The notes: generated from the sequence alone by a model not told the origin. Positions 5,585 to 63,037 are shown, counted from the first letter of the stretch. The stretch is 64,000 nucleotides of DNA from Cyanobacteria bacterium P01_A01_bin.123 (GCA_039815185.1 JBCBZT010000020.1:1-64000); one strand, 5' to 3'. Translations and numbers: made by a program.

Positions 5585-5588
5585 GCTA

Positions 5589-7375: not shown

Positions 7376-7406
7376 GTTAGAAGCAGCCCCTCAGTTTATC
7401 TCCTAA

Positions 7407-10362: not shown

Positions 10363-10416
10363 ACACTACAAAACAATCAACCTTCGCTCTCGCGCATCTT
10401 CTGGTGGCCTAACCCT

Positions 10417-12522: not shown

Positions 12523-12678
12523 TTTGGGCTTCTTGATCAGGATGCTTGCATGGAATTCTCTGGGTCGAATACTAAGTAGCTGACTGTGACCAAGGTTTAA
12601 ATTATTCCGATTCCTGCAACTTCATAGCCCTGAAAACTCTAGAATCTGGAGCATTGTCGTGATCCAAGGCGGTGTTCC

Positions 12679-17581: not shown

Positions 17582-17646
17582 CAAATTTTTTTCTAAAAAA
17601 TCAACTCGTTCATAAGTTTCGTTTCCAGATTATCCTCATACAGTTC

Positions 17647-17805
17647 GGGAGCATCCCGAATGTGTAAATAGGCAGATAATAGGGTGAATCTCGTCTGCTA
17701 AGGAGTCAACCCGATGGATCTCAAAAGGAAGCTCGCCTCAAAGCCTGTTTACAAGAAGTAGCTGAAATCCTTTATGACGAGAGTGCACCAGCTGCAATTC
17801 AACCT
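17647..17805 (+). mobile_element. Probable left-end remnant of an ISKra4-family element
   Basis: GGGAGCATCCC end-like sequence, AGGAG plus ATG at 17714, then frameshifted QKEARLKACLQEVAEILYDES, which resembles the N-terminus of cyanobacterial ISKra4 transposases (recalled, not searched). Confidence 0.5.
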
Positions 17806-17911
17806 ACATTCCGCAGGTTGACAATTAATTAGTCGTCCCAGAAAAACCCTCAGTATCAAGCTGGGACTGGGACAACTAAGTACAGAATCATATCAAACTC
17901 GATAGACAACC

Positions 17912-45357: not shown

Positions 45358-47940
45358 ATGAAAAGAGCTAATCAACCCAAAAAAATTCAGGGGAAAGTCT
45401 ACCGTACAATTATTGCGGCAGCACTTGCCCTGGGCGGAACACTCCACATGGTCACCGCCGTCCTTGCCGATGGCACGGCAGCAGGCACCCAAATTACCAA
45501 CGAAGCAACCGCGACTTACGAAGACCCCAACGACCCTAACAACACACCCATCACGACCACATCAAACGAAGTGGTGGTTCAGGTCGCTGAAGTAGCCGGT
45601 ATTACCGTCCAACCTGCCGGAATTGAGTTTAATCCAACTGGCGGTGACGCAGACAACGACGGCTTGGTTGAACCCGATGATCAGCTTTACTACATCTATG
45701 AAGTCACCAACGTGGGTAACGACCCCACTGAGTTCTTCATCCCAGATACCGCTGTGGTGACAACCAATAATGGTAGCCAGGACGGCCAGATTGAAATCAG
45801 CTACGATGGCACAACCTGGGGCGATCCTCGCGATACAGGTTTTAACCCAGACGGTGATGGCATTACGGATGCTATTCCTCCAAACGGTAAGGTGCTCGTA
45901 CGGGTACCGATTCAGGTGGCTAGCAATGCTAATCCTGGCGATCCCGTTGAAGTCCGCTTGGGTAACACGCCTGGTGATGGCCAAAACCAAGATTATGTGC
46001 CCAATGGTGTACTCGATGTCTACACCTCAGACGCACCTTTCCCCACCACTGTGGGTGGTGTGGATGAAGTGGATGGTGATCCGGCTAATGGCACCCGCGA
46101 AGCCAGTGCTCGTCAGTCTATCCCGGTTGATTCGACCCTCGATACCCAACCCCTAGTCACCATCGAAAAGATTCTCAGCAACTATGAGGCAAATAACGCA
46201 GCTAGCCTGACTGACGATGAATTGACTTACGAATTGCGGTTCGAGGTTGAGGGGACAGACACTACAGGCAACACCCCTGCCTTTACCCCTGGGCCTTTGT
46301 ATCCCGTCGATGGTATCTCAGTTGATGGCGGCACTGGGTCCCATATTTTGGTATCCGACGCTCTACCCGATCACACCGTGTTGAGTGGGACACCTACTGC
46401 CCCGGCAGGTTGGACCGTAGTTTACAGTGGCACCGCCACTACCACCAATGCCCATGATGCAGATTGGTTTACCAGTTCCACTGCTCCTGGGCTGGGGGGA
46501 ACCATTACCCGGGTTGGTTTCATCAGCGATTCCTCAATTATCTCCCTAGCGCCCACCAGCGTGGTTGAAACCTTCCGGTTTACAGTAGAAACGACTAATG
46601 TACCGACTGGTTTGACCGAAGCAACCTTTGCTAATATCGCGCAAGTCTTTGGTTCTGCGGATCCCGGTGGCGACCCCAACGAACTGGTCAATGATGAATC
46701 GGGTGACAGCACCCCCAGCAACTACAATCCCACTGGCGGTACTGGCGGTACTGGCGGCTTTGACCCACCGAGCGATGGCTACATCCCTGATGACGACGAT
46801 GACGGGGTACCTGACGACATCGATCTGAACGACCCGACCGCAGGTGACGGCACTGACCCCAGCAACACCAACAGCGGTACTGGGACTGGCGGTGAAGCCA
46901 ACATCAAGACCATTGGCTTGCCTTCTAGCTTGGATCTAATCAATGGCCCTGAGAATGAGCCCGAGGCAATTGGCCCCACAGGGACGAATGATGACTTCAC
47001 CAACAAATCTGTCCCGGTTGATCCTGCCGATATCACCTTCGATGCCACCGATAGCCGCGATGAACTCGATCCTGATCCGGTCGATTTTGCCAACACGGTG
47101 CTCAACAACGGCCAAACCACGGGTGACATTACCTTGGTACCCACCCCTCCTGCGGATACCAATGATTTACCCGATGGCACTATCGTCACCATTACCGATC
47201 CCGATGGTGAGACGGCGATTTACGAGTACAACGGCACGACCTTTACCCGCACGGGCGGTACGGCTGGTGGAGATATTGTCATCCCAGATGTGGATCCCAA
47301 TGATGAAGTCACCTACGGTGTCCGGGTAGACTTGCCAGATGGCACCCCCCTCTCCACGGATACCGATGGCACCGGTAATCCAATTGGCGGCTTCCCCGTT
47401 CCGATTACAGCTACGTTGGAAGATGCCGGGGGTAATACAGCCAGCAACATCACGATTGACCAAGTTTACACGGGTTATCTGCAGCTCGCTAAAGAGTCTC
47501 GCATCCTGCAAGGCAGTGGCCCAGCGGTGCAGTCTGGTCAAGGTGACTTCAGCGCCGATCCTAAGAATCCAGCACCGGGCAACATCATTGAATATCGGGT
47601 GACCTACACCAACATCAGTGAAACAGCTTCCGGTAGCAACAACGTGGTGCTCAATGCTGAAAATGTGGTCATCAACGAGGACGGCACCGATGGCGGCAAT
47701 AATTGGGCGCTGGATAACGACAACAACAGTGTGATTGACACCAGCAATGTTCCAGGGTCTGCAACTGACTCTAACGGCGGTACCATCACCTACTACAGCG
47801 GTGCCCCGGCCAATACCCCAACTGGCGATACCTCCGGTTCAGATGCAAATACCGATGTCACTCGCTATGTCGATCAGGTTCCTGGCTTAGTCGGCCCTGG
47901 TGAATCAGGCTCCCTGATTTTCCGCCGCGTGCTGAACTAA
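45358..47940 (+). CDS. Secreted DUF11 (TIGR01451-like) multidomain protein; candidate major pilin
   Basis: Signal peptide ending VLA; N-terminal GTAAGTQITNEATATY..SNEVVVQV; Ig-like domains; C-terminal LAK..PGNIIEYRVTYTN..FRRVLN. Confidence 0.8.
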   Translation: MKRANQPKKIQGKVYRTIIAAALALGGTLHMVTAVLADGTAAGTQITNEATATYEDPNDPNNTPITTTSNEVVVQVAEVAGITVQPAGIEFNPTGGDADNDGLVEPDDQLYYIYEVTNVGNDPTEFFIPDTAVVTTNNGSQDGQIEISYDGTTWGDPRDTGFNPDGDGITDAIPPNGKVLVRVPIQVASNANPGDPVEVRLGNTPGDGQNQDYVPNGVLDVYTSDAPFPTTVGGVDEVDGDPANGTREASARQSIPVDSTLDTQPLVTIEKILSNYEANNAASLTDDELTYELRFEVEGTDTTGNTPAFTPGPLYPVDGISVDGGTGSHILVSDALPDHTVLSGTPTAPAGWTVVYSGTATTTNAHDADWFTSSTAPGLGGTITRVGFISDSSIISLAPTSVVETFRFTVETTNVPTGLTEATFANIAQVFGSADPGGDPNELVNDESGDSTPSNYNPTGGTGGTGGFDPPSDGYIPDDDDDGVPDDIDLNDPTAGDGTDPSNTNSGTGTGGEANIKTIGLPSSLDLINGPENEPEAIGPTGTNDDFTNKSVPVDPADITFDATDSRDELDPDPVDFANTVLNNGQTTGDITLVPTPPADTNDLPDGTIVTITDPDGETAIYEYNGTTFTRTGGTAGGDIVIPDVDPNDEVTYGVRVDLPDGTPLSTDTDGTGNPIGGFPVPITATLEDAGGNTASNITIDQVYTGYLQLAKESRILQGSGPAVQSGQGDFSADPKNPAPGNIIEYRVTYTNISETASGSNNVVLNAENVVINEDGTDGGNNWALDNDNNSVIDTSNVPGSATDSNGGTITYYSGAPANTPTGDTSGSDANTDVTRYVDQVPGLVGPGESGSLIFRRVLN

Positions 47941-47957
47941 CCACCCCACCCCTCAAC

Positions 47958-47986
47958 GGTAGGCAAGTGTCTACGGCTTGCCTACC
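47958..47986 (+). other. Intercistronic stem-loop without a U-tract
   Basis: GGTAGGCAAG-9nt-CTTGCCTACC, 17 nt after the stop. Confidence 0.7.
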
Positions 47987-48035
47987 CCCATTCATTCATT
48001 GCAATTACCCCAAGATTAAACGGAGAACAACTACT

Positions 48036-48593
48036 ATGAAACGTTGGTTTATCGGTCTGGGTGCCCTGGTTCTAGTCGGCTCTGCCCCCTTTATTGGCAC
48101 TCCTGTCTTTGCCCAAATTCAAAAAATCACTGAGTCGATTGTCGAAACGATCCGTCGGCCCGAGGTCAAACTCACCCTAACTGCAGAAAAGCAGATTGTT
48201 GAAGTCAACACTGCTGGAGAACAAGCCACCACTTGGGAAGCGTTGGCAGGTCAAGCCCAGGTATTTCCCGGTGATGTCTTACGTTACACCATTGATGGTG
48301 CCAACTCTGGCGATGTTGAAGCTGAGAACTTGGTTATCAGCCAGGCAATTCCGGCTGAAATGACCTATGTTTTGGCTTCTGCAACCCCTGTAGAAGGGGC
48401 AGAACTGGTCTACAGCATCGATGGCGGCGAAACCTTTGTGGCTGAGCCCATGGTTGAAGTCACCCTGCCCGATGGCACGGTTGAACTCCAACCTGCACCT
48501 GCTGAAGCTTATACCCATGTTCGTTGGAGCTTTGGCGAGTCTTTGGCCTCTGCTAGCTCACTCAAAGTAGCCTACGACGTGCAGGTGAAATAA
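48036..48593 (+). CDS. Small secreted single-DUF11 protein; candidate chaperone or cap
   Basis: Signal peptide ending VFA; PGDVLRYTI..N..AENLVISQAIP..YTHVRW..YDVQVK; GGAG upstream. Confidence 0.85.
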   Translation: MKRWFIGLGALVLVGSAPFIGTPVFAQIQKITESIVETIRRPEVKLTLTAEKQIVEVNTAGEQATTWEALAGQAQVFPGDVLRYTIDGANSGDVEAENLVISQAIPAEMTYVLASATPVEGAELVYSIDGGETFVAEPMVEVTLPDGTVELQPAPAEAYTHVRWSFGESLASASSLKVAYDVQVK

Positions 48594-48860
48594 GTCGGAT
48601 TGAAGCGCGCGATCGCAGCTATTGCTGATTCTGTCTAGCTCTCCGATAGGGCGGTCGTGCGCTTTCCTAACGCTTGCAACCTGCTTAATCAGACTTTTTA
48701 CACAACCTATCGCTATTGACATGGGGTCTCGCTACGAGCTGCTGAAAAAGCTCAAGCCGAAACCTTAGGGGGACTTTGCACGAATTTTTCGCGTTGCCAA
48801 CCAGTGGAACTGGTTTACCCCCATCAGGATTGCCTCGCTCGCGGATCTCAGGGAAACATC

Positions 48861-50375
48861 ATGACCAACCGCTCTCAACATAAACCAAACTGGCTCAAAC
48901 ACCGATGGGTTAAGTACCTGGCGACTGCGCTGCTGGCCTTTGCAATCGTTCAAAATCCGATCGCAACCCTGGCTCAGGTGCAGATACCACTGGTGAACCA
49001 GGCCACTTATGAATATTCTGACCCTGCTAGTGGCAATAACTTTCAAGGCACGTCTCGTGCGATTACCACTCAAACGTCACCGCTGGTTGATCCGCTGGGA
49101 CAAATTCTGGCGTGTAACGGCACTCAGCTTGCTAACTATGCAGGGTTTTCAGTCGCAATTTACGAAGCAGATGCCAGTGGTTTAGAACCTGCCGGTTTGC
49201 TTCCCTTAACCCGTACGGAATTTCCTGATAATCCAGGCAACAACATTCCTGGTGGTAAAGCACCCAATATTGAAAATAGTAATCCCTTCTTCTTAACCAA
49301 TGCGGATCAGGGACGCTACAACTTCTTGTTTGACCCCAATCAAGGTCAGACGGATCCGGGTCAAGTTTACATCTTGGCTGTTGACCCACCCTCAGGTTCA
49401 GAGTTCATCGAGCGCCGCATTCGCATTGAGATTCTGCAGAGTACGGGCGGTTCTAACGGCAGTATTGTGCGCTATCGGGCGACAGCCCTAGATGGTCAGC
49501 CGATCAGTGTGGCTGGGGGCAACCAAATCAGTGACAACGTGGTTGAGGTTCTGGACGCAGAAACTGGGCTGCTGAATCTCTTCTCCCTAGCACTCGGGAC
49601 GGTCATTTGCGAAAACCGACAGATTCAAATCACAAAGTCTGGCGATCGCGCTGCGGCTCAACCGGGTGACACCGCCGTGTATCGACTCGCTATTCGCAAC
49701 CTGGTGGATGTCGATCTCAACACCATCGTTGCGACCGATATACTGCCCTTTGGTTTCCGCTTCTTAGCAGATTCGGTACGGGCTCACATTAACGGCAGCC
49801 CCGTTGCCATTACCCCAGAGGTAAGTCCAGACGGCTTAACGGTGACCTTCAACGCCGAAGCCAGTATTCCCTCAGGTCAAACCCTAAACATTATTTATGC
49901 CGCCAATATTACCCCGGATGCAGTCCGCGGGTCAGCGCGTAACTCGGCAGTGGTGAATGGGATACGGGCAGACAATGGTTTATCGGTCAAAGACGGCCCG
50001 GTAAGTCATCTGATGCGTCTTGACCCCGGTATTCTCAGCGACTGCGGCACATTGATTGGCCGAGTCTTTGTTGACAAAAACTTTGATGGCGAACAGCAGC
50101 CCGGTGAACCCGGTGTGCCCAATGCCGTTGTGTTTTTGGATGACGGCAACCGCATCGTCACCGATGCAGAAGGCCTCTATTCTGTCTCCAACATGCTGCC
50201 GGGATACCGCACCGGTGCCCTCGATTTAAGCAGCCTACCGGGTTATACCCTCGCCCCCAACCTCTATTTCAGAGAACGCAATAGTCAGTCACGGCTTGTG
50301 CATCTAGCACCGGGTGGCATGGTCCGCATGAACTTTGCGGTCACCCCCACCTTCCAGGAGGAAAATCAGTCATGA
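48861..50375 (+). CDS. Secreted DUF11 + SdrD-B-like protein; candidate base/anchor subunit
   Basis: Signal peptide; LVNQATYEY; ITKSGD..PGDTAVYRL..TDILP..RNSAVV; GRVFVDKNFDGEQQPGEPGV. Confidence 0.85.
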   Translation: MTNRSQHKPNWLKHRWVKYLATALLAFAIVQNPIATLAQVQIPLVNQATYEYSDPASGNNFQGTSRAITTQTSPLVDPLGQILACNGTQLANYAGFSVAIYEADASGLEPAGLLPLTRTEFPDNPGNNIPGGKAPNIENSNPFFLTNADQGRYNFLFDPNQGQTDPGQVYILAVDPPSGSEFIERRIRIEILQSTGGSNGSIVRYRATALDGQPISVAGGNQISDNVVEVLDAETGLLNLFSLALGTVICENRQIQITKSGDRAAAQPGDTAVYRLAIRNLVDVDLNTIVATDILPFGFRFLADSVRAHINGSPVAITPEVSPDGLTVTFNAEASIPSGQTLNIIYAANITPDAVRGSARNSAVVNGIRADNGLSVKDGPVSHLMRLDPGILSDCGTLIGRVFVDKNFDGEQQPGEPGVPNAVVFLDDGNRIVTDAEGLYSVSNMLPGYRTGALDLSSLPGYTLAPNLYFRERNSQSRLVHLAPGGMVRMNFAVTPTFQEENQS

Positions 50376-53300
50376 AATCGTCACAGAGAAACACTATCAT
50401 CAGGGCCAGCCTATTGGGGGCGATCGCAGGCACCGTTGGCATCACAGCAAATCCTGCAACTGCATTAGCAGCAACCCAATCTATCAGCCCTAAAGCCCAA
50501 GCAGCCAACATTGCAGAATTGTCGCAAGCCGAGGCAACCTCATCTGAACTTTCCTCACGCGATCGCGAGATTGAAGTTGCTCAAATAGAGACCACAGCCG
50601 CTAGTGCACCTTCCTCAGACTCAACCAGTAGTCTTGAGGTTATTCCAGAGACATTTGCTACACAAGCAGCAGATACGCCAATCGCAGCAGACTTATTACC
50701 GTCTCCAGGAGCAGAACTCACCACTGAGATCGGGACTGAGGTTGCTGATATTGCAGACAATGAGCCGACCGCGATCGCCGATGGTGCCAGCCAGCTAGAC
50801 GGTCTTCAAGAGGCTGAAATGGAGGCGGTAGAAGCACTCACCTCGGAAGAATCAGCAGAGGACACTACCACCGTATCTGATGCAGAAGAATTAGCGGAGA
50901 CTGAGATTCAACCCCTAGATCATCAGGCATTAGCCAATCAGGTTCGGATTCTAAATCCTGTCGGCAACGCCGTTCTAGATGTGCCAGCCACCACTGTGAT
51001 TCTGGAATATCCGACTGGCGCTGATGTTGAATTGCAGGTCAATGGCACACGGGTTGACGCATCTTTGCTCGGTCGGACAGAGGTTGACGAAACCCGTAGC
51101 GTCACCGTCGAAACTTGGTATGGGGTACCGCTACAGGCAGGCACGAACAACATTGATGCGGCCATTCGAGGGACTAACACTCCCCTAACGACGATAGAGA
51201 TTCAGGTGCGTGGGGTACCGACTCAGCTTACGGTTGAAACTCGGGAAGCCCAAGTCGCTGCCGATGGTCGCTCAACAGCCACCATTCAAGGTCAACTGCT
51301 AGATGAGAACGGTAACCTTTCCAACTGGAATACAACCGTTACGTTGACGGCCACCGACGGAGAATTTGTGGGGGCAGACCTGTACCCTGATCAAGCTGGG
51401 TTTCAAGTTGAAGCTCGTAATGGTCGCTATACCACCGAACTGCGATCGCCGTTGGAAGCCCAACGGGTGCAGCTTAGGGCAACCGCAAATGGGCTAGAAG
51501 CATTTAATCAAATTCAGTTTGAAACCCAACAGCGTCCTAGCTTGGTGACTGGCGTCATCGACCTCCACTTTGGGACACGGGGCACTGACTATTACAGCAG
51601 CTTCCGAGACTTCTTACCCCCCGATGGCAACAACGGCTACGAGTTCGATGTAGACGCCGCTGTTTTTGCCATCGGGAACTTAGGAGACTGGCTGTTCACG
51701 GGGGCTTACAACAGCGATCGCTCACTGAATGAAGACTGTACCGGCAGTATTGAACTGTTTCGTGACACGCAGCGATGCGAACACAACTATCCGGTCTACG
51801 GCGATGATTCTAGCCGTGACGTTTTAGCACCTTCCATTGACAGCCTTTACCTGAGATTTGAGCGCACTTCGCCAGTGGCAGGGGCTGGAATTGACTACTT
51901 TTCGTGGGGGGATTTCAACACCGAAGAGTTTGCCACCTCATCCCAACTATTTAGCGCCACAACCCGTCAACTCCATGGCTTTAAATTTAACTACAACATT
52001 GGTGATTTAGCCGTAACCGGCTTCTATGGCGACAACGTAGACGGGTTTCAACGAGACACGATTGCGCCGGATGGCACTAGCGGCTTCTATTTCCTCTCTC
52101 GCCGTTTGCTCGTGCCCGGGAGTGAAAATATCTTCCTAGAACTAGAAGAATTGGATCGCCCTGGTACGGTCGTCGAACGTCAGGCGCTCTATCGCGGCAC
52201 CGACTACGAAATTGACTATGACCGGGGTACAATTCTGTTCCGCGATGCGGTTTTACGCACGGCTGTAGACGAGACCGGGACTGTCCTAGTGCGCCGGATT
52301 GTGGCGACCTACCAGTTTGAAGGAGACGGCACTAACACCAATATTTATGCAGGCCGCCTGCAGTACAACCTAGATCGCACTTTGAACCACGAGAGCTGGC
52401 TGGGCGCGACCTATCTCAGAGAGAACCAAGGCAACCGGAGCTTTGAACTGTATGGCGCAGACGCTCAAATTTCCTTGGGTGAAGATGCTCAGCTGATTGC
52501 AGAATTTGCCCATTCAGATAGTGATTTTGATTTGTCTGGCCCAATCAGCGGTTCAGCCTATCGGCTTGAACTTGAGGGCACGGTAACCAACTGGTTGGCT
52601 GGGCGAGCTTATTTTCGCCATACTGACGCAGGCTTTACCAACACTGCCACAACTAGCTTTGTACCGGGGCAAACCCGCTATGGCATTGAGGCAGTTGCTG
52701 CTGTCTCTGAGACAACCAACATCCGCGCCCGGTATGACCACGAAGAGAATGTCGGTACCGCACCGCGCCCGCTCTTGACCCTAAGTGAGCTGCTTGAGAC
52801 TGGCGTTTCTGCCACCCCTGGTAGCCGAGTTGATAACTCGCTAGACACCTTTTCACTGGGTATTGTTCAGCAACTTGGTGATACCAATCTAGAGTTCGAC
52901 TGGATTCACCGAGAACGCACCGATCGGATTTCTCCCAATGCTTTATCGTCGAGTTCTGATCAGCTGCGATCGCGCTTAACCACTAACTTGAGCGAAGACA
53001 TTACCCTCTTTGCCCAAAATGAGCTGAATCTGTCTTCTAATGGAGACTCAATCTATCCCAACCGCACCATCTTTGGCCTAGATTGGCAACTGATGCCCGG
53101 TATTACGCTCGGGGTCAATCAGATTTTCCTCGAAAACAACGGCATCAATGATCGCGGCGCAGTTACCACCATCGATTTGGATGCTGCCTATGCCCTAGGT
53201 GAAGACACCACCATTCGGGGTCGCTTCTCAGTTATCGATGGCACTCAAGTGGGGGGAACGGTTGGGCTAGAACAGGGCTTTACGTTGGCCCCCGGCCTGC

Positions 53301-54247
53301 GGCTTGATTTGGCTTACGAGCATGTATTTAACAACATCTCCAGTATCACTGCTGCCGGAACGCAATTTGTGCAGCCCTTTGCGGTGGGATCGGGGGCATC
53401 TTCGCTGCTGCTCACCGATGGTGACAGTTTCAGCGTCGGACTTTCTTACACTGATAATCCTGATTTGCAAGCGAGTGCCCGCCTAGAGCACCGTTCTTCC
53501 TCCCAAGGGTCTAACACAGTTTTCACAGCATCTGCCCTGGGTCGATTGTCGCCAGCAGTCAGCGTCTTATTCAACTATGAACTGGCCAGTGCTGCCAATC
53601 AATCCCTAGATGGACTGGGAACCTCTAGCACGCTGAAGCTGGGCCTTGCCTACCGAGATCCCCATAGCGATCAGTTCAATGCCCTGCTGCGTTATGAATA
53701 CCGGGGTAATCCTTCTGCTACGCCCGAGACCTTACTCTTTGGGTCTGACATCGGCTCGGAAGAACACCTCTTTACTGCTGAGGCAATTTATGCACCGAAT
53801 TGGCGCTGGGAGTTTTATGGCAAGTATGCCTTCCGCACCAGCACAACCCGCATTGGTGGCATTGGCAGCAGTGAAACGGGTGGGTTTGATGACTTTGTAT
53901 CTAACAGTGCGGTTCATCTAGCCCAGTTTAGAACCACTTATCGATTGGGATACGACTGGGATGTCGTTGGTGAAGCCCGCTGGATTGGCAGCTCTGCCGG
54001 ATATACCGAAATGGGTGCGGCCCTCGAGTTGGGCTACTATCCGACACCTGACCTGCGGTTGTCGGCGGGTTACAGCTTTGGTAGCGCCTATGACCGGGAT
54101 TTCACTGGGAGCAATCGCTCCGCTGGGGGATTTTATTTCGGCATTACTGCCAAGCTCAACAGTTTATTTGGTGGCTTTGGTCTGCAAGAGGTGGCCCCCC
54201 CTCAGCAGCAAGAGTCTGTGCTAGAAACCACTGCGACAAACAATTAA
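50372..54247 (+). CDS. Large putative outer-membrane beta-barrel protein with N-terminal Ig-like domains; candidate usher
   Basis: Signal peptide, acidic linker, Big_1-like ADGRSTATI, ~850 aa of amphipathic beta-strands ending GFYFGITAKL; ATGA overlap with the upstream gene. Confidence 0.75.
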   Translation: MKSSQRNTIIRASLLGAIAGTVGITANPATALAATQSISPKAQAANIAELSQAEATSSELSSRDREIEVAQIETTAASAPSSDSTSSLEVIPETFATQAADTPIAADLLPSPGAELTTEIGTEVADIADNEPTAIADGASQLDGLQEAEMEAVEALTSEESAEDTTTVSDAEELAETEIQPLDHQALANQVRILNPVGNAVLDVPATTVILEYPTGADVELQVNGTRVDASLLGRTEVDETRSVTVETWYGVPLQAGTNNIDAAIRGTNTPLTTIEIQVRGVPTQLTVETREAQVAADGRSTATIQGQLLDENGNLSNWNTTVTLTATDGEFVGADLYPDQAGFQVEARNGRYTTELRSPLEAQRVQLRATANGLEAFNQIQFETQQRPSLVTGVIDLHFGTRGTDYYSSFRDFLPPDGNNGYEFDVDAAVFAIGNLGDWLFTGAYNSDRSLNEDCTGSIELFRDTQRCEHNYPVYGDDSSRDVLAPSIDSLYLRFERTSPVAGAGIDYFSWGDFNTEEFATSSQLFSATTRQLHGFKFNYNIGDLAVTGFYGDNVDGFQRDTIAPDGTSGFYFLSRRLLVPGSENIFLELEELDRPGTVVERQALYRGTDYEIDYDRGTILFRDAVLRTAVDETGTVLVRRIVATYQFEGDGTNTNIYAGRLQYNLDRTLNHESWLGATYLRENQGNRSFELYGADAQISLGEDAQLIAEFAHSDSDFDLSGPISGSAYRLELEGTVTNWLAGRAYFRHTDAGFTNTATTSFVPGQTRYGIEAVAAVSETTNIRARYDHEENVGTAPRPLLTLSELLETGVSATPGSRVDNSLDTFSLGIVQQLGDTNLEFDWIHRERTDRISPNALSSSSDQLRSRLTTNLSEDITLFAQNELNLSSNGDSIYPNRTIFGLDWQLMPGITLGVNQIFLENNGINDRGAVTTIDLDAAYALGEDTTIRGRFSVIDGTQVGGTVGLEQGFTLAPGLRLDLAYEHVFNNISSITAAGTQFVQPFAVGSGASSLLLTDGDSFSVGLSYTDNPDLQASARLEHRSSSQGSNTVFTASALGRLSPAVSVLFNYELASAANQSLDGLGTSSTLKLGLAYRDPHSDQFNALLRYEYRGNPSATPETLLFGSDIGSEEHLFTAEAIYAPNWRWEFYGKYAFRTSTTRIGGIGSSETGGFDDFVSNSAVHLAQFRTTYRLGYDWDVVGEARWIGSSAGYTEMGAALELGYYPTPDLRLSAGYSFGSAYDRDFTGSNRSAGGFYFGITAKLNSLFGGFGLQEVAPPQQQESVLETTATNN

Positions 54248-54278
54248 GCGAATTCGCTGGAGATAAGGAGCAAGACTG

Positions 54279-56426
54279 ATGATGCATCCCCTAAGCACTC
54301 GACGCTATCAGCTATTGATGGCTTGCGGTCTAGCCGCAACAACACTCGTCTCTCAAGTCGCAGTCTGGGCGCAGGCCACCCCGGCTCACGTGACTACACC
54401 ACCACCTGATCTCCACATCGTCGTCAATAGTAGTCAAGACGGCCCGATCCAGGCTGACGAGATGTTGACCTTGCGAGAAGCCATTGAACTGACTAATGGC
54501 ACCTTGCCATTGGCTTCTCTAAGTGATGTTGAACACGCTCAAGTCACTGTAGTTGAACCTGCTGAATCAGCATCGCGCATTGAGTTTAATCTCCCGGCGA
54601 ATCAAACAAAGATTCAATTGGTAACGCCGCTACCCGCAATCGCAAGCCCTGATCTAACCCTAGATGGCACTACCCAACCCGGTTATGACCCAGCCCTATC
54701 GGCAACGGCTGAAATCGAAGTGCCAATCCCAGTTGTCGAAATTACGCCAGCTCCAGAGGCTGAAGTGTTTCGGGGGTTGAGTATTGTTGCCAGTGGCGTA
54801 ACAGTACGAGGCTTGAGCCTTTATGGTTTTACCGCAGAACACCGAGCTACGGCGATTACACCACCCGCAGATATCTTTATTGCCCATCGTTTGCCACCCC
54901 CAGATACCAGCCAACAATATCCACCCGCCCAAGGGTTTTCCTATTACGACGAAAACATTCCGCCTGAGGATGTACTGATTGAACACAATTGGTTGGGGAT
55001 GCCACCGACAGAAGCCATGCCTGAGACACCTTCAGCGTTTGGGGTTTCTGTATTCAACAGCCAAGGCACAACGGTTCGTCGGAATCGCATTGCTCACCAT
55101 GACGGCAGTGCGATCATTACCGGGGCTCGGGCTGAAAATCTGAAGGTTGAAGAAAACATCTTAGTCGCCAATGGCCTAGCGGGCATGCCCGATGGCATCC
55201 GCATTGAGGGCAGCGTTGATAACAGCGTCATCAGTGGCAATCTGGTCTGCGGTAACGACGGTGCAGGGATCTTTCTGTTTAAGCCCGAAGGGGCGATTGA
55301 AATTCGCGACAACACCATCAAGTTTAATGGTCAGCGCCTGCGTCGCGCTGCGATTTACCTAATGGGCAATGGCCATCGAGTTGTCGACAACGAAATTAAT
55401 AATCAAAAAGGGCCGGGGGTGGTTGTCACCGCGTTTGGCATTGGCAGCCGCAACCCCAGCCATCGCAACTTGATTCAAAACAATGTGTTTGCCAGCCTGG
55501 AAGGCTTGAGTATTGACCTCAATACCCGCCGTCACAATGGGGTGCAAGATTTCCAGCGGGGCGATGGCCCGAATCCAGTGCGCAATTCTGACAATCGGCG
55601 GTTGGATACTGGCAATTTAGCGATTAATGCACCTCAGTTCCTGAGTCCTGAGTTCTTTGTCATGAATGGCAAAGTGATGATCGAAGGCATGGCTGATCCA
55701 GGGTCTGAGGTTGAGCTTTACCTCAGCCATGCGGCTGATTCAGCCCATGGGCCTTTGAGTCAGCCTTTGGCGACTGTTGCGGTGGATCAAGCGGGGCACT
55801 TCACATACGAATCCGCTGAACTGCCATCAGGAACCATAGTCAGCGCGATCGCATCTGATCCTCGCTATGGCACTTCAGAGCCAGCGTTAAATACCGTGGT
55901 GCGATCGCTGTCTGCTACAGATGACAACTCAGCTGCATCTAGCAATCTGGATTTTGAAGTCCCCCAGTGTACAACCCGGCCTGAGCCCCCCGAACCTGTC
56001 GTCGTGGCCCCACCCCCGCCAGAACCAATTCAACTGCAAGTGCCTCGAAACGTTCACTTTGGCCTGGATCGCGACAACATCAGTGCTGAAAGCGCGGCTG
56101 TTTTAGATCAAATTGCAGCAGCAATGCAAATCCATCCCACCTTGGTGGTGGATCTGCACGGCCACACCGACTCTCGGGCCAGTGATGCCTACAACCAAGA
56201 ATTAGCCTTGCGTCGGGCGCGCAATGCTAGAGCGTATCTGATTCAGCAAGGCATTGATCCGGCCCGGACGACAATTCGCTCGTTGGGTGAAACTCAGCTT
56301 TTAACTTCAGAGCGCGATCGCGTCGAGTATGCCCGCAACCGCCGAGTCGAATTTGTGTTTCGCGATGTCCGAGGGCTTAACATCACCTTCGTTGATCAAG
56401 ACACCGACTTACAGATCGAACCTTGA
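54279..56426 (+). CDS. Beta-helix + OmpA C-terminal domain protein
   Basis: Signal peptide, LTLREAI, N/G-rich parallel beta-helix repeats, Pro-rich linker, HF..GHTDSRASDAYNQELALRRA..GE..NRRVEF. Confidence 0.9.
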   Translation: MMHPLSTRRYQLLMACGLAATTLVSQVAVWAQATPAHVTTPPPDLHIVVNSSQDGPIQADEMLTLREAIELTNGTLPLASLSDVEHAQVTVVEPAESASRIEFNLPANQTKIQLVTPLPAIASPDLTLDGTTQPGYDPALSATAEIEVPIPVVEITPAPEAEVFRGLSIVASGVTVRGLSLYGFTAEHRATAITPPADIFIAHRLPPPDTSQQYPPAQGFSYYDENIPPEDVLIEHNWLGMPPTEAMPETPSAFGVSVFNSQGTTVRRNRIAHHDGSAIITGARAENLKVEENILVANGLAGMPDGIRIEGSVDNSVISGNLVCGNDGAGIFLFKPEGAIEIRDNTIKFNGQRLRRAAIYLMGNGHRVVDNEINNQKGPGVVVTAFGIGSRNPSHRNLIQNNVFASLEGLSIDLNTRRHNGVQDFQRGDGPNPVRNSDNRRLDTGNLAINAPQFLSPEFFVMNGKVMIEGMADPGSEVELYLSHAADSAHGPLSQPLATVAVDQAGHFTYESAELPSGTIVSAIASDPRYGTSEPALNTVVRSLSATDDNSAASSNLDFEVPQCTTRPEPPEPVVVAPPPPEPIQLQVPRNVHFGLDRDNISAESAAVLDQIAAAMQIHPTLVVDLHGHTDSRASDAYNQELALRRARNARAYLIQQGIDPARTTIRSLGETQLLTSERDRVEYARNRRVEFVFRDVRGLNITFVDQDTDLQIEP

Positions 56427-56621
56427 TCATGCCTACGAAAAATTACTGACGTATTACCAGTGTTGCAATTAACCCAGCTTGAAGCTCCCAGAATTTACTG
56501 AGTCTTTGATCCCAACATAACGGGATTGCTAAAGAGGGAGCTTCCCGGTGCTGAGCCTTTATGCCTTACCTGCTCTGCTAATCCATTCTCCAAATCATTG
56601 CCTGCCAATAAGGGTCTTACT

Positions 56622-59600
56622 ATGAGTCTTCTACCCAGATATCTGTCACTGTTTGCGCGCGCTGCTAAAAATCGCCCCAGTGCGTTACTAGCCGCTGCAA
56701 CGATATTAACCACGACGCTGGGCTTTGTGACTCCCGCCAGGGCTGACTCCACGCTTAACGTCATCAAAACAGCGCTGGATCTGAATGGGGCAGATATTAC
56801 CGATGTTGAGTCAGGTCAGGATTTTCTGTTTGAAATTAAGTGGTCTTGTAGTTTAGACGATATCAACGTTGATATATGTGAAGACGTCCAAATCTCAGAC
56901 GTGATTCCCACCGAGCTGGAATATGTCGGTTTAGAAGAGGGAGAAGGGGCCAGAGCCAACTACAACAGCGGCACAAGAACATTCACCTACGATCTCGGCA
57001 CGATTCAGGGAGACTCGGCAGCGGGTTCAATTGCTATTAGAGTTCGCTTCCCAGAAGGAGTTACTGCCGACAACGTAACCGCCAACAACACGGCTGTTAT
57101 TGAATCCGCCACTGCAAATCCGCCAGGACAAAAGTCCAGCAGTGACGATATCACCAGTGATGTCAGCAACCCAGCAGGTAAGTGGAATGTCACTAAAAAC
57201 AAGTTGTTACCTTCCGGTGATCCCATCTTGGATGGAGATGTTACCTATGAAGTCAGCCTTGCGCCAACCCAACGTACGGGTAACCTGAATCTAGAAAACG
57301 TCGTCATGACGGACACCCCAGAGGTTGGGGCAGAAGTTGTCTCTGTGAGCAATGGCGGCGTCTTTAATGATGGCGACGGCGATGGCATCGTGGATCCGGG
57401 AGACACCATTACCTGGAACGTCGGCGATCGCACTGTAGGGCAAGAAACCTACCGAGCTCAGGTCGTATTAAGTTATCCAGCGGCCACCTTCAACTCGAGT
57501 GGTGCAGCCCCCGATACACTACCAGATGTGACAAACTCGGTCACCGGAGCCGGTACCTTTGAAGTGACTAGCGATGCCTTTAGCGACGATGGGGAAGTTA
57601 GCCACGGGTTCGTCGATCCAGATCCTGGCTTAGCCAACTTTCAAAAACGCAACCAAGGCTTTGTCTACGGCAGCCGTCCTGATATTGGCACCGAATTCTA
57701 CTACGACTATAGAATTCAAAACACGGGTAACGTTGCCTTCGATACCCTCACCGTCTTTGATGACAATTTGCCGCCAGAGGTAGATGCTCTACGCTTCCGC
57801 ACGGGTAGATACAGTAACGACGCCGGAGCGACGTTTACACTGCAATACAGTACCGACAACGTCAACTTCCAAAATGTGCCTGGGGTGGTTGATTTGGTTG
57901 TTGCCGACACTGAGCAGCAAAACTTTACCTTGCCAACAGGGACACGTGGCATTCGCATTATTTACGAAAATGCGCCTGTGGGCTTTAACGCCAATACTCG
58001 CCCCAGACTCTATGTCGAAGTGCGCACAACCATGGAAGATACAGGGGCGACGATTCAAGACGGAGAAGACATTGATAACACCGCCACCTTAACAGGTGTC
58101 TTTAATGGTAATGACTACACCGATGACGATGATGTGGAAACCTTTGTCGATCGCCCCCGTGCCGTAGGCATCATTAGCAAAGAGGATTTAACCAATAGCG
58201 GCCCTTACGCGCCGTCTGAGCTAGTTGAGTTTCGGTTGACTGCGGGCAACCGTCGCAATGCCCGCAGAACTCTGGAAAATCCGGTCGTGGTCGATATTCT
58301 GCCCGATGGCCTAGCCTATGTGGCAAATTCCTATGTGTTTGATGCTGGCGATAGTGGCCTGTCAGCACCGTCTAATTTCGAAGTCATTGAAAACTACAAC
58401 GGTAGTGGCCAAACCCTCTTACGCTGGACTTGGGAAGGTCAAGCTGCGGATTATGACGATGGGTCCGACGGTAACGCTTTTAATGACGACAAGACCTGGA
58501 CGATTACCTATAAAGCCGGGATTGAAGAAGGTGATATCCAGGGCAGCATCACCAATACGGTTTACCTCAGTACCTACGACACAAGTACCGACCCGGCAGA
58601 TTTTGTTTGCCATAGCAGGGGTGACAACGATATTGGTGATAGCGACGACATTGATGGCGACGGCAAGACCGGGGACGACAATGTTTACAACAGCAACTCA
58701 TCCACAACTAACGATAATCCCCTCTGCCGTGCCACCGCAGATGTAACCGTTACCACGCTGCCCTTCCTCGAAGCACGTAAACGGGTACAGGGTGGATTAA
58801 ACAACAGCTACGAGATCAGTGGTCAGAGCTATCCCGGTGGTGCAGTCGATTATCAAATCACCGTTACCAACACCGGTACTACGCCCATTGAAGACTTGGT
58901 CGTCGTCGATATCTTCCCCAATATTGACGACACCAGTGTGCTCAATACCAACGTGCCGAGGAATTCTGAGTGGCGACCTTATTTGGTTGGCCCCATCGAA
59001 GTCCAAGTCCCCACGGCTCAGGTTTACTATAGTGTGTCGTCAAATCCATGCCGTCTGAATCCATTAGACGGTACTGATCAGCTTTGGCCACCCGGTTGCG
59101 TTGATGACTGGACAACCACCTTCCCCAATGACCCTACTACGGTCACAGCGGTCAAGATTGACTACGGCAGCTTCAGGCTCAATCCATTGACCTCGCTGAC
59201 AAACGATTGGCCCATGCGGGTGCCGGTCGTTGCCCCTACCAATGAATCAGCCTTTAATTCCTTTGCCCTCACCGGACGACGCATCGATCGCACCTCTCCC
59301 CTACTACCCCAAGAACCGCCTCGGGTAGAGGTCGACTTACAAACCGACGATCCACCGGTTTTGGGTGATTTTGTCTGGAACGATGCTAATAACAACGGCG
59401 TTCAAGACGATGGTGAGAATGGTATCAATGGGGTAGTAGTCGAGCTTTACCGCCCCGGTGCTGATGGCATTCCGGGGACGCCAGACGACGAGTTCGTCGA
59501 CTTCACCATGACCGGGCCAAACCACTTTGGTTTCCCTGGCTTTTATGAGTTTGCCTATCTCGATCCAGGTGACTACTTTCTGAAATTCATTCCGCCCACG

Positions 59601-61508
59601 GGCTCAGGCTATTTCTTTACCAGTAGCAGTGGTACCGATCGCGACGATGGGACAGGTTCTGATGCTAATCAGACAACCGGCTTAACCGATGTGATTACTA
59701 TCGCCAGCGGCGACGACGAACGCGACATTGATGCGGGTCTTACCACCACCCCACCAACAGGCCAAGCCACCCTGGGTGACTATGTCTGGTTAGATGCCAA
59801 TGGTGATGGCATTCAAGATGCCAATGAAACGGGTGTTAACGGGGTCAGCGTCATGCTCTATCAGAGTGACGGCACCTTTGTGGGCACCACCCAAACCAGT
59901 AATGACACCAATGGTAATCCGGGGTATTACATCTTCCAAAACCTGCCACCCGGTGATTACTACGTCGAGTTCAATCCACCCGCAGGGTACAATGCTTCTC
60001 CGCAAAGTCAGGGGAGCGACACAGCTCAAGACTCCGATGCTGATCCCACCGATGTCGATGGGACAACGCCAGGAACCCAAGCCCGAACAAATCCATTTAC
60101 CCTCAGCGCAGGTCAAAACGAAACTGATATCGATTTCGGGATCGTGCCCCAACCGCGTATCGGTGACTATGTCTGGATTGACCTCAACCGTGACGGCATC
60201 CAGGATGGAACAGAGGTTGGGCTCAATGGCGTCACAGTCAATCTCTATGAAGACGGTAATCTCACCCCCGTAGACACGATCGTGACTGCCGACGATATTC
60301 AAGGCAATCCTGGTTATTATGCCTTTGCCACTGGAGGACTTAGCGGTGACTATTCGATTGAGTTTGTGCTGCCTAGCGGATATGAATTTTCGCCACAAAA
60401 CTCTGGCAGCGATGACACCCTCGACTCAGATGTCAATACCGCAACGGGGCGCATTGAGATTACTGGCGTCACCAACACAACCACTGATTTGAGTCTAGAT
60501 GCTGGGGTCAACCAACCGGCACCAGGGCCTGGCTTCGTAGGCGACTTTGTCTGGTTAGATCTCGATGAAGATGGCATTCAAGATCCAACCGAAACTGGCT
60601 TTAACGATGTCACGGTCAGACTGCGTAGGGCTAGCGATGACAGCCTTTATGCTGAGACAGTCACAGCAGATTCTCTGGGGCGACCTGGCTACTATCTGTT
60701 TAGCAACGTACCGGATGATGACTACTATGTTGAATTCGTACTGCCAGAAGACTACTTAGCCTCACCTGCAAATGCTGGCAGTGATGACTCGGAAGATTCC
60801 GATGTGGATAGTGCGGATGCAGATCCGAATGTGTCAGGGGTAGAGACTGATGCGGATCTGAGTACGAGTGCGATTGAGCTAAGAACGCCATCATTCAACG
60901 TGACTAGCACCTCCGACAATCGCACTATTGACATGGGGATTTACCGTGACCCTAATGCCCCTGAACCTCCAAGCGTGGTGCTACTCAAGCGAATCACAGC
61001 TATTAATAACGTTCCTATTGCCTTCGACGGGCCTCAAACCCCAGAAGAAGATGAGGTTGATGATCTATTTCCATCTAACTTTTTAGAAGGGACAGTGGAT
61101 GGCGGTGAAACGAGACCGGGCGATGAAATTGAGTACACGATCTACTTTATTTCTAACGGCGATCGCGCAGCTGAAAATGTGGCTTTCTGCGACCTAGTGC
61201 CAGAATACACAACGATCAGTTCAACTGCTTTCAATGCCAACCCAGCCACCCAAGATACGGGGGGAATCCCAGGGGCCGATCGCGGCATTGTGCTCGGTCT
61301 TGGTAGTGATGAACTCTCAATGACCAATGTGGCCGATGGCGATCGCGGGGTTTATGTACAACCGGGTGATCCGACTGGACTCGACTGTGGCGGCCCGAAT
61401 AGCAATGGTGCCGTAGTTGTGTTCATTGGCGATATTCCCAACGCTAACGGCAACCCAAACCCCAACACCTCCTACGGATTCGTCAGATTCCGAGCGCGGG
61501 TGCAGTAG
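56622..61508 (+). CDS. Large DUF11 / SdrD-B repeat adhesin-like protein; candidate tip subunit
   Basis: Signal peptide ending ARA; five DUF11-like domains, four GD(F/Y)VWxDxxxxGxQD SdrD-B repeats, C-terminal LLKRI..PGDEIEYTIYF..YGFVRFRARVQ. Confidence 0.88.
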   Translation: MSLLPRYLSLFARAAKNRPSALLAAATILTTTLGFVTPARADSTLNVIKTALDLNGADITDVESGQDFLFEIKWSCSLDDINVDICEDVQISDVIPTELEYVGLEEGEGARANYNSGTRTFTYDLGTIQGDSAAGSIAIRVRFPEGVTADNVTANNTAVIESATANPPGQKSSSDDITSDVSNPAGKWNVTKNKLLPSGDPILDGDVTYEVSLAPTQRTGNLNLENVVMTDTPEVGAEVVSVSNGGVFNDGDGDGIVDPGDTITWNVGDRTVGQETYRAQVVLSYPAATFNSSGAAPDTLPDVTNSVTGAGTFEVTSDAFSDDGEVSHGFVDPDPGLANFQKRNQGFVYGSRPDIGTEFYYDYRIQNTGNVAFDTLTVFDDNLPPEVDALRFRTGRYSNDAGATFTLQYSTDNVNFQNVPGVVDLVVADTEQQNFTLPTGTRGIRIIYENAPVGFNANTRPRLYVEVRTTMEDTGATIQDGEDIDNTATLTGVFNGNDYTDDDDVETFVDRPRAVGIISKEDLTNSGPYAPSELVEFRLTAGNRRNARRTLENPVVVDILPDGLAYVANSYVFDAGDSGLSAPSNFEVIENYNGSGQTLLRWTWEGQAADYDDGSDGNAFNDDKTWTITYKAGIEEGDIQGSITNTVYLSTYDTSTDPADFVCHSRGDNDIGDSDDIDGDGKTGDDNVYNSNSSTTNDNPLCRATADVTVTTLPFLEARKRVQGGLNNSYEISGQSYPGGAVDYQITVTNTGTTPIEDLVVVDIFPNIDDTSVLNTNVPRNSEWRPYLVGPIEVQVPTAQVYYSVSSNPCRLNPLDGTDQLWPPGCVDDWTTTFPNDPTTVTAVKIDYGSFRLNPLTSLTNDWPMRVPVVAPTNESAFNSFALTGRRIDRTSPLLPQEPPRVEVDLQTDDPPVLGDFVWNDANNNGVQDDGENGINGVVVELYRPGADGIPGTPDDEFVDFTMTGPNHFGFPGFYEFAYLDPGDYFLKFIPPTGSGYFFTSSSGTDRDDGTGSDANQTTGLTDVITIASGDDERDIDAGLTTTPPTGQATLGDYVWLDANGDGIQDANETGVNGVSVMLYQSDGTFVGTTQTSNDTNGNPGYYIFQNLPPGDYYVEFNPPAGYNASPQSQGSDTAQDSDADPTDVDGTTPGTQARTNPFTLSAGQNETDIDFGIVPQPRIGDYVWIDLNRDGIQDGTEVGLNGVTVNLYEDGNLTPVDTIVTADDIQGNPGYYAFATGGLSGDYSIEFVLPSGYEFSPQNSGSDDTLDSDVNTATGRIEITGVTNTTTDLSLDAGVNQPAPGPGFVGDFVWLDLDEDGIQDPTETGFNDVTVRLRRASDDSLYAETVTADSLGRPGYYLFSNVPDDDYYVEFVLPEDYLASPANAGSDDSEDSDVDSADADPNVSGVETDADLSTSAIELRTPSFNVTSTSDNRTIDMGIYRDPNAPEPPSVVLLKRITAINNVPIAFDGPQTPEEDEVDDLFPSNFLEGTVDGGETRPGDEIEYTIYFISNGDRAAENVAFCDLVPEYTTISSTAFNANPATQDTGGIPGADRGIVLGLGSDELSMTNVADGDRGVYVQPGDPTGLDCGGPNSNGAVVVFIGDIPNANGNPNPNTSYGFVRFRARVQ

Positions 61509-62774: not shown

Positions 62775-63037
62775 CCCAACAACGTCTACCAGACACCATC
62801 ATAGTCAGGAGGCAGAAGTCAGAAATCAGAATAAATGACTGCTGTTATGGGGAACCCCTAGAACTTGATCGACGACACAGAAGTAGGACAGTGTTTACAC
62901 TAGATAAGCAGCATCCGACTTGAAAGCTGGAGTTTTTAGCTTTCAAGAAGCATGAGTCTGGATGTAGATGAGACTTAAAGTGCGTATCTTCATTGAATAG
63001 TGCAACAGTGATTAATCCAAATTTTCCCTTCACCTTT

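Follow-up and report, generated by a model that had tools for sequence, protein, structure and literature searches.

The g1-g6 locus and its putative split domains

We describe a cluster of six co-oriented genes (g1-g6, plus strand, positions 45358-61508) in a 64,000-nucleotide stretch of DNA from Cyanobacteria bacterium P01_A01_bin.123 (GCA_039815185.1 JBCBZT010000020.1:1-64000), hereafter the window. Each of the six proteins has, as judged by eye, a signal-peptide-like N-terminus. Three of them (g1, g2 and g6) end in a truncated immunoglobulin (Ig)-like domain and two (g1 and g3) begin with a short hairpin, and these parts are referred to below as acceptors and donors, respectively. A large outer-membrane beta-barrel (g4) and a beta-helix protein with an OmpA domain (g5) complete the set, and the stop codon of g3 overlaps the start codon of g4 by 4 nt. 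The coordinates and candidate roles are listed in Table 1.

The domains concerned belong to the DUF11 class, which has been renamed CLIPPER. The available text of the source describes DUF11 and DUF7925 domains as CnaA-like, with a Lys in the first strand, an Asn in the penultimate strand and an intramolecular isopeptide bond formed with the aid of an Asp; a solved CLIPPER example (PDB 9IFR) has nine strands and the residues K715, D748 and N806, and a DUF7925 example has the triad K264/D326/N415 (PMC12617251). The proteins g1, g2 and g6 end in FRRVLN, YDVQVK and FRARVQ, respectively, each followed by the stop codon, at the point where the Asn strand of a DUF11/CnaA domain would come next. After the signal peptide, mature g1 starts with DGTAAGTQITNEATATY..TSNEVVVQV and mature g3 with QVQIPLVNQATYEY..TSRAITT, which share the donor hairpin motif I-x-N-x-A-x-x-x-Y. 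A sequence-only reading of this DNA had claimed that three genes stop before the Asn strand and that two genes begin with the missing piece; these strings were all found where it had placed them, and the donor motif proved to be conserved.

In g1, the signal peptide and donor hairpin are followed by a DUF11-like domain, a DUF7925 isopeptide domain (residues 266-456, Pfam E 8e-54), a Gly/Thr/Asp-rich linker, a further Ig-like part and the C-terminal acceptor domain. The DUF7925 triad is kept in cis (K271 in 51/58, D334 in 55/58 and N426 in 55/58 aligned rows). This gene is present as a single copy in the genome (8.09 Mb, 133 contigs). In g3, the signal peptide and hairpin precede an inserted domain and a DUF11 (255-365) that is complete, K, D and N strands included; the C-terminal domain is SdrD_B-like, lacks a groove and ends in ..FQEENQS. 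The N-terminus of g6 starts with the K-strand of a complete DUF11 and has no donor hairpin, and Pfam assigned DUF11, DUF7507 and four SdrD_B repeats to its further domains. No hairpin was found on g2. The DUF11 profile (PF01345, cut-off 24.6 bits) matched g2, g3 and g6 with 24.9, 26.1 and 54.5 bits, respectively, and TIGR01451 also matched these three proteins (g2: 30.4 vs a cut-off of 24). The DUF11 matches span only profile positions 2-96, 6-56 or 10-56 of 114, that of g2 being a partial one (residues 73-121, profile 10-56), and the g6 C-domain taken as a fragment scored 21.9 bits, under the cut-off.

The strings around the acid position of the three acceptors can be aligned by eye (AENVVINEDGT in g1, AENLVISQAIP in g2 and AENVAFCDLVP in g6), so that Gln103 of g2, which is followed by Pro, replaces Glu774 of g1 and Asp1524 of g6. 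Lys, acid and Asn were not found together within any one terminal domain, as g1, g2 and g6 stop short of an Asn strand and the Asn lies on the g1 and g3 hairpins. Read from these motifs, the triad of the terminal domains is complete only in trans. Since g6 and g2 offer a groove without a hairpin, and g3 a hairpin without a groove, these proteins would need partners in trans.

Conservation of donors and acceptors

Relatives were collected by using the barrel protein g4 as a query against genome contigs. This gave 253 pattern matches and 209 confirmed relatives; the best 80 were kept, corresponding to 77 related loci, and the six proteins were mapped onto the open reading frames of these loci. 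Relatives are listed for Nostoc, Trichormus variabilis and Leptolyngbya. Among about 55 g1, 60 g2 and 58 g6-type relatives, nearly every protein terminates at one and the same strand, the stop positions being residue-exact across about 170 proteins, well above what chance would give, with conserved C-terminal ends (..G.F.F.R.[VI]N in g1, ..Y.V.V[KR] in g2 and ..YGF[VI]RF...V. in g6). The sequence-only reading had hinged on these C-domains not being complete, and in nearly all relatives the C-termini do end before the Asn strand.

After the signal peptide, the donor consensus is A[ED]GTAAGT.I.NTATATY.D...TSNTV.V.V in g1 relatives and [IL].N.A...Y in g3 relatives. The g1 donor residues I46, N48 and S69 are conserved in 58/58 rows, and A50 and N70 in 57/58; in g3, N46 and A48 are present in all 58 rows and Y52 in 57/58. 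In the g1 C-domain, K712 and E774 are each conserved in 54/58 rows (with one further Asp at the latter position), and the four exceptions are not comparable because they are downstream paralogues (L012, L018, L039, L069) with a g6-type C-domain or at a contig end. The g6-type C-domains have invariant D1524, C1523, G1619 and F1623 residues (59 rows), and a crude motif count of the g6-type proteins recovered the L.KR.T strand in 53/58 and CD..P in 48/58. About 50/58 of these proteins lack a donor: a regular expression matched eight, one of them falsely, leaving a real N-terminal donor in 7/58. Across the whole genome under study, a donor regular expression yielded 25 matches, of which only g1 and g3 were real; its start filter excluded the g3 homologue of the second locus described below. 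The roles assigned in the sequence-only reading, with g1 as donor and acceptor, g3 as donor only, g6 as acceptor only and g2 as an acceptor without the acid, hold across the relatives.

In the g6-type acceptor, C1523 is present in all rows, directly before the acid, and C1589 in 98% of them, a pair that suggests a disulfide next to the putative reactive site. In some loci, extra downstream genes carry both a donor hairpin (PGT.I.NQATGS[FY].D) and a g6-type acceptor (SYG..RF.TKV.P), and perhaps encode a second kind of subunit, such as adapters or minor pilins. A long form of g3 (810-819 aa vs about 505), in which the region after the hairpin differs, was also observed (Table 1).

Synteny and a second, minimal locus

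The order g1-g2-g3-g4 was found in 55 of the 60 cyanobacterial loci with at least 6.5 kb of sequence upstream of g4, so the gene neighbourhood survey that the sequence-only reading called for came out in its favour. Four of the 60 (L065, L075, L077 and L067) have g3 without g1 and g2, and in L076 a 222-aa g1-like piece and g3 were present without g2. Downstream of g4, a g6-type acceptor gene was found in 42 and g5 in 30 of the 54 loci with at least 6 kb of sequence, and in almost every locus g3 either adjoins g4 or overlaps it. From these counts of co-conservation, the system has g3 and g4 at its core, with acceptor adhesins as its usual cargo and g1 and g2 as a module. One contig carries tandem systems, g1-g2-g3-g4-g5 followed by g1-g2-g3-g4.

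A second locus on another contig of the same genome has neither g1 nor g2. Its g3 homologue (g3', 343 aa) has a complete DUF11 immediately preceded by the hairpin VTVTNQASAQF..TSNTTSYQV and is 50% identical to g3 over 281 aa; g4' is 49% identical to g4 over 1017 aa; and g5' consists of a beta-helix, Big_6 and OmpA. Two beta-helix adhesins at this locus have g6-type acceptor ends (ELIKRIT, CDPVP, G[FL]VRFVT.VD; E 3e-9 to the g6 C-domain). The halves encoded by this locus can only meet between different proteins, because g3' is donor-only and the adhesins are acceptors. Being jointly absent from this minimal locus and from the four others mentioned above, g1 and g2 come and go together.

Table 1. 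Coordinates of the features of the g1-g6 cluster and of related loci (window positions, unless a contig or locus is named)
Feature	Position	Strand	Description
g1	45358-47940	+	860 aa; candidate shaft subunit (donor + acceptor)
g1 donor hairpin	45469-45597	+	residues 38-80 (..QITNEATATY..TSNEVVVQV..); candidate Asn48
g1 C-terminal acceptor domain	47455-47940	+	about residues 700-860; Lys712, Glu774; last strand ..SLIFRRVLN
g2	48036-48593	+	185 aa; signal peptide and one acceptor-like DUF11 domain; candidate decoy acceptor (hairpin chaperone) or cap
g3	48861-50375	+	504 aa; candidate base or terminator (donor only)
g3 donor hairpin	48978-49076	+	residues about 40-72; candidate Asn46
g4	50372-54247	+	1291 aa; outer-membrane beta-barrel; candidate export and anchoring platform
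g4 acidic stretch	50460-50940		residues about 30-190, between signal peptide and Ig domain(s)
g5	54279-56426	+	715 aa; beta-helix and OmpA; candidate cell wall tether
g6	56622-61508	+	1628 aa; candidate tip adhesin (acceptor only)
g6 C-terminal acceptor domain	60954-61508	+	about residues 1445-1628; ..LLKRIT.., Cys1523-Asp1524; end ..YGFVRFRARVQ
Second locus, same genome	contig C92:200500-214500 (L079): 12348-13379, 8543-12382, 6471-8543, 3786-6461, 971-3709	-	
Extra donor + acceptor genes	L012:20645-23402, L018:20033-23381, L039:8006-12751, L069:16109-18244, L009:18826-21801, L024:19732-21606, L025:18054-21248, L031:19370-21283		
Long g3 form	L044:6261-8720, L049:7482-9920, L052:7005-9464, L055:6288-8720, L076:7275-9734		
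Tandem systems	L033:3593-23270		
g1 orthologues with C-terminal tails	L026:4134-6824, L028:4194-6917, L033:3593-6406, L062:4846-7488		

Predicted complex of the g1 hairpin and acceptor domain

The complex of the g1 C-domain (residues 692-860) and the g1 hairpin (residues 38-82) was folded from slices of one 45-row custom alignment. The interface score (ipSAE) was 0.87/0.86/0.85, vs 0.01 in the best of three controls, with a partner confidence (pLDDT) of at least 84 and a contact agreement between runs of at least 94%. In this fragment version of the pilin homodimer check proposed in the sequence-only reading, the model confidently placed the g1 hairpin so that it fills the g1 C-domain (0.86 vs 0.01). 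In the predicted complex, hairpin residues 44-58 run antiparallel to residues 767-776, the strand of Glu774, and residues 67-80 sit between 708-714 (the Lys712 strand) and 735-740. Being flanked in this way, the second strand of the hairpin is inserted into the sheet rather than added at its edge. The Asn48 strand lies on the acid-bearing sheet, opposite Lys712. This placement corresponds to beta8/beta9 of the CnaA fold, in which, according to the available text of the source, the first and penultimate strands lie on opposing sheets (PMC12617251). The hairpin and the g1 C-domain are therefore predicted to look like one domain, a result on fold, as binding in the cell is beyond the reach of such a prediction. 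At this level of prediction, the incomplete Ig fold of one subunit is filled by the N-terminal hairpin of its successor, a donor of two strands.

The g2 acceptor without the acid

Across 54 g2 proteins from cyanobacteria, Q103-P104 shows a conservation of 90% or more. A library-wide search with a g2 profile was also carried out, and its best 150 matches comprised 99 giant multi-repeat DUF11 proteins and 51 small ones; among the latter and the g2 of the window, Q103 is conserved in 50/52 and the Lys is looser (K52, 38/52). The claim in the sequence-only reading that g2 is a non-catalytic acceptor agrees with this Gln at the acid site. Look-alikes of g2 and g4 were also seen in protein clusters from Pseudomonadota and Acidobacteriota; the loci counted here are cyanobacterial.

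The g2 model (pLDDT 82.7) has strands at residues 44-57, 63-69, 73-76, 81-90, 100-104, 109-111, 122-127, 139-143, 149-153, 161-166 and 175-184. When mapped by motif, the modelled protein would have seven core strands plus two inserted hairpins, two core strands fewer than the nine of the solved CLIPPER domain. VIA-align superimposed it on CLIPPER 9ifr_A (Z 8.0, root-mean-square deviation 2.6, 91 aligned residues), PrgB (Z 8.5), AgI/II (Z 8.2) and RrgB/BcpA/SpaA/EbpB (Z 6.6-7.6). The aligned ranges (model 39-185 vs 9ifr 18-109 of 123) do not allow the missing strands to be read and were not used for that purpose, and a g2 profile against PDB sequences retrieved nothing meaningful (best E 0.095). 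Because g2 keeps the groove, has lost exactly the acid and travels with g1, its most likely role, judging from its sequence, would be to hold g1 hairpins reversibly in the periplasm, blocking polymerisation before g4, in a mirror image of what the chaperone of the usher pathway does. Alternatively, g2 might cap the fibres.

The g4 barrel and g5

The protein g4 consists of a signal peptide, an acidic low-complexity linker, one or more Ig-like domains (Invasin_D3/Big_1, residues 284-380) and a barrel of ~900 aa. The model of residues 385-1291 (52 sequences; pLDDT 74.7, pTM 0.63) has about 40 strands (DSSP), with a short-stranded insert at about model residues 187-248. The best Foldseek match was Deinococcus SlpA/SDBC (E 3e-10, TMq 0.24-0.25), followed by MtrB, LptD and SprA (TM 0.17-0.25 over the range). 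The matches to SprA chains (E 4e-6 to 1e-5, TMq 0.21-0.22) were no better than those to LptD or MtrB, and TonB-dependent receptors were weak fold matches (TM 0.12-0.18). At E<=0.01, Pfam gave Invasin_D3, Glyco_hydro2_C5, DUF2490 and Big_1 only, with none in the last 900 residues, and NCBIfam gave only a 14-bit GalA row. Many g4 relatives (P0009-P0126) are named 'TonB-dependent receptor' at NCBI, a name that looks wrong because no plug or TonB-receptor profile matches. The acidic stretch is long, rich in Ala/Ser/Thr/Glu and very variable in length, and g4 relatives have 1118-1582 aa.

The sequence-only reading had credited the cluster with its own usher. A large co-oriented barrel is indeed present, but no usher or chaperone family match was obtained: Pfam at E<=0.01 found no usher, Plug or TonB_dep_Rec family in g4, and there was no usher among the Foldseek rows listed, only generic giant barrels with TM <=0.25. 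'Usher' can therefore be used for g4 as a functional analogy only. That g4 may export or hold the fibre is suggested by its large size, by its periplasmic Ig domain(s) near the N-terminus and by how closely it is coupled to g3. The co-oriented OmpA protein of the same reading was recovered as g5, in which a signal peptide is followed by a right-handed beta-helix (Pfam Beta_helix, E 2e-15), a Pro-rich linker and an OmpA-type peptidoglycan-binding domain (E 1.6e-18).

Genomic setting

The six-gene block is flanked by housekeeping genes: those for MiaE and a type II dehydroquinase on its upstream side, in the opposite orientation, and those for CinA and a YkuD transpeptidase on its downstream side. 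The gene for the latter, a YkuD-type L,D-transpeptidase (window 62993-63670), lies on the same strand as the cluster, beyond the oppositely oriented CinA gene, and is probably unrelated to it. The G+C content is 0.387 at window positions 8001-10000 and 0.420 at 16001-18000, clearly below the window mean of ~0.51. A scan for promoters and terminators gave 12 and 12 sites, under the shuffle means of 15.9 and 17.8, respectively, and an Rfam scan gave 0 matches.

Proposed assembly and alternative explanations

Taking the observed anatomy, conservation and synteny together with the predicted complementation in trans, we lean towards a surface fibre or adhesin-display system, formed by g1-g6 and built on one split CnaA-type (DUF11/CLIPPER-like) domain. 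The remaining elements, namely bonding, polymer formation, assembly order, export through g4 and what g2 and g5 do, are inferred as follows. The acceptor half (strands 1-7, with Lys and the acid) would be the last domain of g6, g1 and g2, and the donor half, comprising the Asn strand plus the last one, would be the first ~40 mature residues of g1 and g3. All six proteins would leave via Sec. As in chaperone-usher pili, the tip would come first, with g6 engaging g4; the g1 hairpin would then complete the g6 C-domain, and the Lys and Asp1524 of g6 would react with Asn48. Further g1 subunits would join at the base, each g1 C-domain taking the next g1 hairpin via K712 and E774. Insertion of the hairpin would place Asn48 (Asn46 in g3) by Lys712 and Glu774, or by the Lys and Asp1524 of g6, and a Lys-Asn isopeptide bond could then arise spontaneously and lock each joint for good, needing neither sortase nor ATP. 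As a decoy, g2 would hold the hairpin until displaced by a real acceptor, a displacement that the bond would make irreversible. Having no groove and being translationally coupled to the barrel gene, g3 would end the chain and stay at g4, and g5 would tie the barrel complex to peptidoglycan.

Several results weigh against this interpretation. Pfam assigned no family to fragments corresponding to either hairpin (g1 or g3) or to the g1 C-domain, and hhalign aligned the g1 C-domain with the complete DUF11 of g3 over only 22 columns (the PGD..Y strand, probability 13%) and the g1 hairpin with the same domain over a meaningless 10 columns (probability 1%). Since these profiles could not map the split, the case for a missing Asn strand is built on the motifs, their conservation and the predicted complex. 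The passing mark of that prediction was reached by 116/157 solved and 2/215 mismatched pairs, a calibration that is rough here because of the custom alignment, and the pass may stem from the model's memory of intact CnaA/DUF11 domains. The fold evidence on g2 is compatible with the split-domain interpretation and goes no further, because the Z scores for isopeptide domains tie with those for unrelated Ig sandwiches (AP-mu, alpha-2-macroglobulin) and a Foldseek search of the PDB with the g2 model gave 0 matches at E<=0.001. Of the 57 g1 relatives with 700 aa or more, one is frameshifted and four orthologues extend past the conserved end by 6-13 residues; these Pro/Gly/Thr-rich tails contain no Asn-strand motif. 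CnaA domains usually have an Asp where g1 has Glu774, followed by Asp775. With its flexible Gly/Thr/Asp-rich linker of ~70 residues in the middle of the protein, g1 could close in cis. Lastly, g5 is absent from 24/54 loci and the g6-type gene from 12/54.

Anchoring without a polymer, covalent or not, would couple g6 to g3 at the barrel and leave g1 as a single-use adapter or closed in cis. This is unlikely, although at the minimal locus donors and acceptors are confined to a base and adhesins, respectively, four other loci are without g1 and g2, and the long flexible linker of g1 would permit closure in cis: g1 has both halves, as a repeating unit needs, conserved as in g3 and g6, and the co-occurrence of g2 with g1 (55/60 loci) fits a need to control self-polymerisation. 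Strand complementation with no covalent bond, as in chaperone-usher pili, would give Lys, Glu and Asn a structural role. The prediction supports complementation itself, and BsaA N35A oligomers are described, in the available text of that study, as stable in sodium dodecyl sulfate without the bond (10.1101/2024.11.04.621531). However, Lys, acid and Asn are near-invariant at the isopeptide triad positions of the domain class, and precisely the acid is missing from g2 (Gln in 50/52), the only acceptor for which no lock is expected, which makes a purely non-covalent system somewhat less likely again.

It is improbable that the C-terminal Ig-like domains are signals for export or sorting by g4, like those of type IX cargo, with the N-terminal motif used otherwise and the proteins acting as independent adhesins. 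Three cargo-like proteins with a conserved C-terminal domain do adjoin a giant barrel, and the type IX translocon SprA is among the fold matches of g4, but that match is weak (TM 0.21), g3 has no such C-domain and yet is the most tightly coupled to g4, and the invariant hairpin, its predicted fit to the C-domain and the conservation of Lys and acid would be left unexplained. The export-signal and split-domain ideas are compatible and can coexist. The least probable explanation is that these are ordinary fibrillar adhesins whose domains have diverged but are complete, the truncation being an artefact of reading. Such an artefact would agree with the failure of Pfam and hhalign to map the missing strands, and strand number varies among Ig sandwiches; the residue-conserved stops across about 170 proteins argue against it, as do the complex prediction (0.86 vs 0.01) and the motif mapping of g2 (seven core strands plus two inserted hairpins) vs the nine strands given for CLIPPER in the available text (PMC12617251).

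The sequence-only reading is thus supported, having passed every in silico test run here that could refute it, apart from the literal 'usher'. In its fullest form, which we put forward tentatively and place a little short of probable, the split-domain interpretation describes a new, widespread class of diderm pilus. A naturally split, self-crosslinking adhesin domain would let subunits click together head to tail and lock by Lys-Asn chemistry, much as engineered tag/catcher pairs do, tip first at a barrel of ~40 strands, without ATP, sortase, usher or a strand-donating chaperone; the dead decoy g2 would keep the process in check, and g1 and g2 would be an optional add-on to a covalent adhesin-to-anchor system.

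Relationship to known systems

The system resembles chaperone-usher pili (FimH-FimG-FimF-FimA(n)-FimI, FimC and FimD), as outlined in the available text of PMC13721041, in its tip/shaft/terminator logic, in a tip that has a groove and no N-terminal extension and a shaft that has both, the extension completing the Ig fold of the previous subunit, and in an outer-membrane barrel encoded in the operon. In contrast, no usher or PapD-like family was found by Pfam in the six proteins, and no component is homologous. The donor is a hairpin of two strands where those pili use one; the CnaA/DUF11-like fold carries a conserved Lys/acid/Asn set from which a covalent lock is predicted; g3, the candidate terminator, has no groove at all; the barrel has about 40 strands vs 24 in the usher; and the small accessory protein g2 is a single DUF11-like domain that offers a groove, not a strand. 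CLIPPER and DUF7925 domains are of the same class, and complete DUF7925 (g1) and DUF11 (g3, g6) domains are present here. However, the bond in these domains is formed within one domain of one chain, and the available part of PMC12617251 surveys intramolecular bonds only, whereas the terminal domains described here appear to be divided between two chain ends, so that this chemistry would link separate molecules.

Two further filaments are among the closest known systems. The available text on Clostridium perfringens BsaA, of the TasA family, describes 'donor-strand exchange and lock', in which an Asn-Lys isopeptide bond is catalysed by a Glu of the acceptor, and oligomers are lost in N35, K74 and E56 mutants (10.1101/2024.11.04.621531). 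The N-terminal strand of one subunit entering the next and the Asn-Lys-Glu lock would be shared features, but BsaA has a TasA-like fold, a monoderm host, a single donor strand, no outer-membrane barrel and secretion linked to SipW and a type IV pilus; no TasA-family Pfam match was found in the six proteins. The threads of Sulfolobus acidocaldarius (Saci_0406) combine donor-strand complementation with proposed intermolecular isopeptide bonds and are sortase-free, according to the available text (PMC9715654), but they are archaeal, with a single-domain type-1-pilin-like subunit and no barrel. The BsaA and Sulfolobus filaments differ from the g1-g6 system in fold, bond and envelope.

Sortase-assembled pili of Gram-positive bacteria are covalent Ig-domain fibres with CnaA/CnaB domains, and in engineered split isopeptide domains of the SpyTag/SpyCatcher type, a strand with one reactive residue reacts spontaneously with the rest of the domain. 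Here, in contrast, the link would come from the domain's own chemistry and the split appears to be natural, not engineered; no Pfam match to a sortase family was obtained in the six proteins, and the acceptor C-termini (g1, g2 and g6) have no cell-wall sorting signal. The DUF11 'grappling hooks' of Litorilinea were considered and set aside, as they are formed by one chain of 6,596 aa. A 2026 preprint describes, in its available text, a chaperone-guided donor-strand pilus of WxL proteins in Enterococcus, which is unrelated. A search of the main texts in one full-text library found no description of the cluster or of a split DUF11 pilus, and the available text of an October 2026 review of bacterial surfaces mentions no such system. 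The g1-g6 system appears to be undescribed, and would represent a new type of pilus or of adhesin display.

If the split-domain interpretation is correct, these genes would encode a pilus or adhesin-display pathway with parts unrelated to those of chaperone-usher, type IV, type V, curli and sortase systems, and, for bacteria that have an outer membrane, would be the first case in which a naturally split CnaA-type domain joins molecules by Lys-Asn isopeptide bonds. Covalent fibres, proof against heat and proteases, would be built outside the cell without an energy source. The split domains would also offer new orthogonal tag/catcher pairs for protein engineering, including a natural non-reactive catcher, g2. 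For the cyanobacteria themselves, such a system would explain a conserved and mis-named cluster of many filamentous species, with a bearing on mats, sheaths, adhesion and gliding surfaces.

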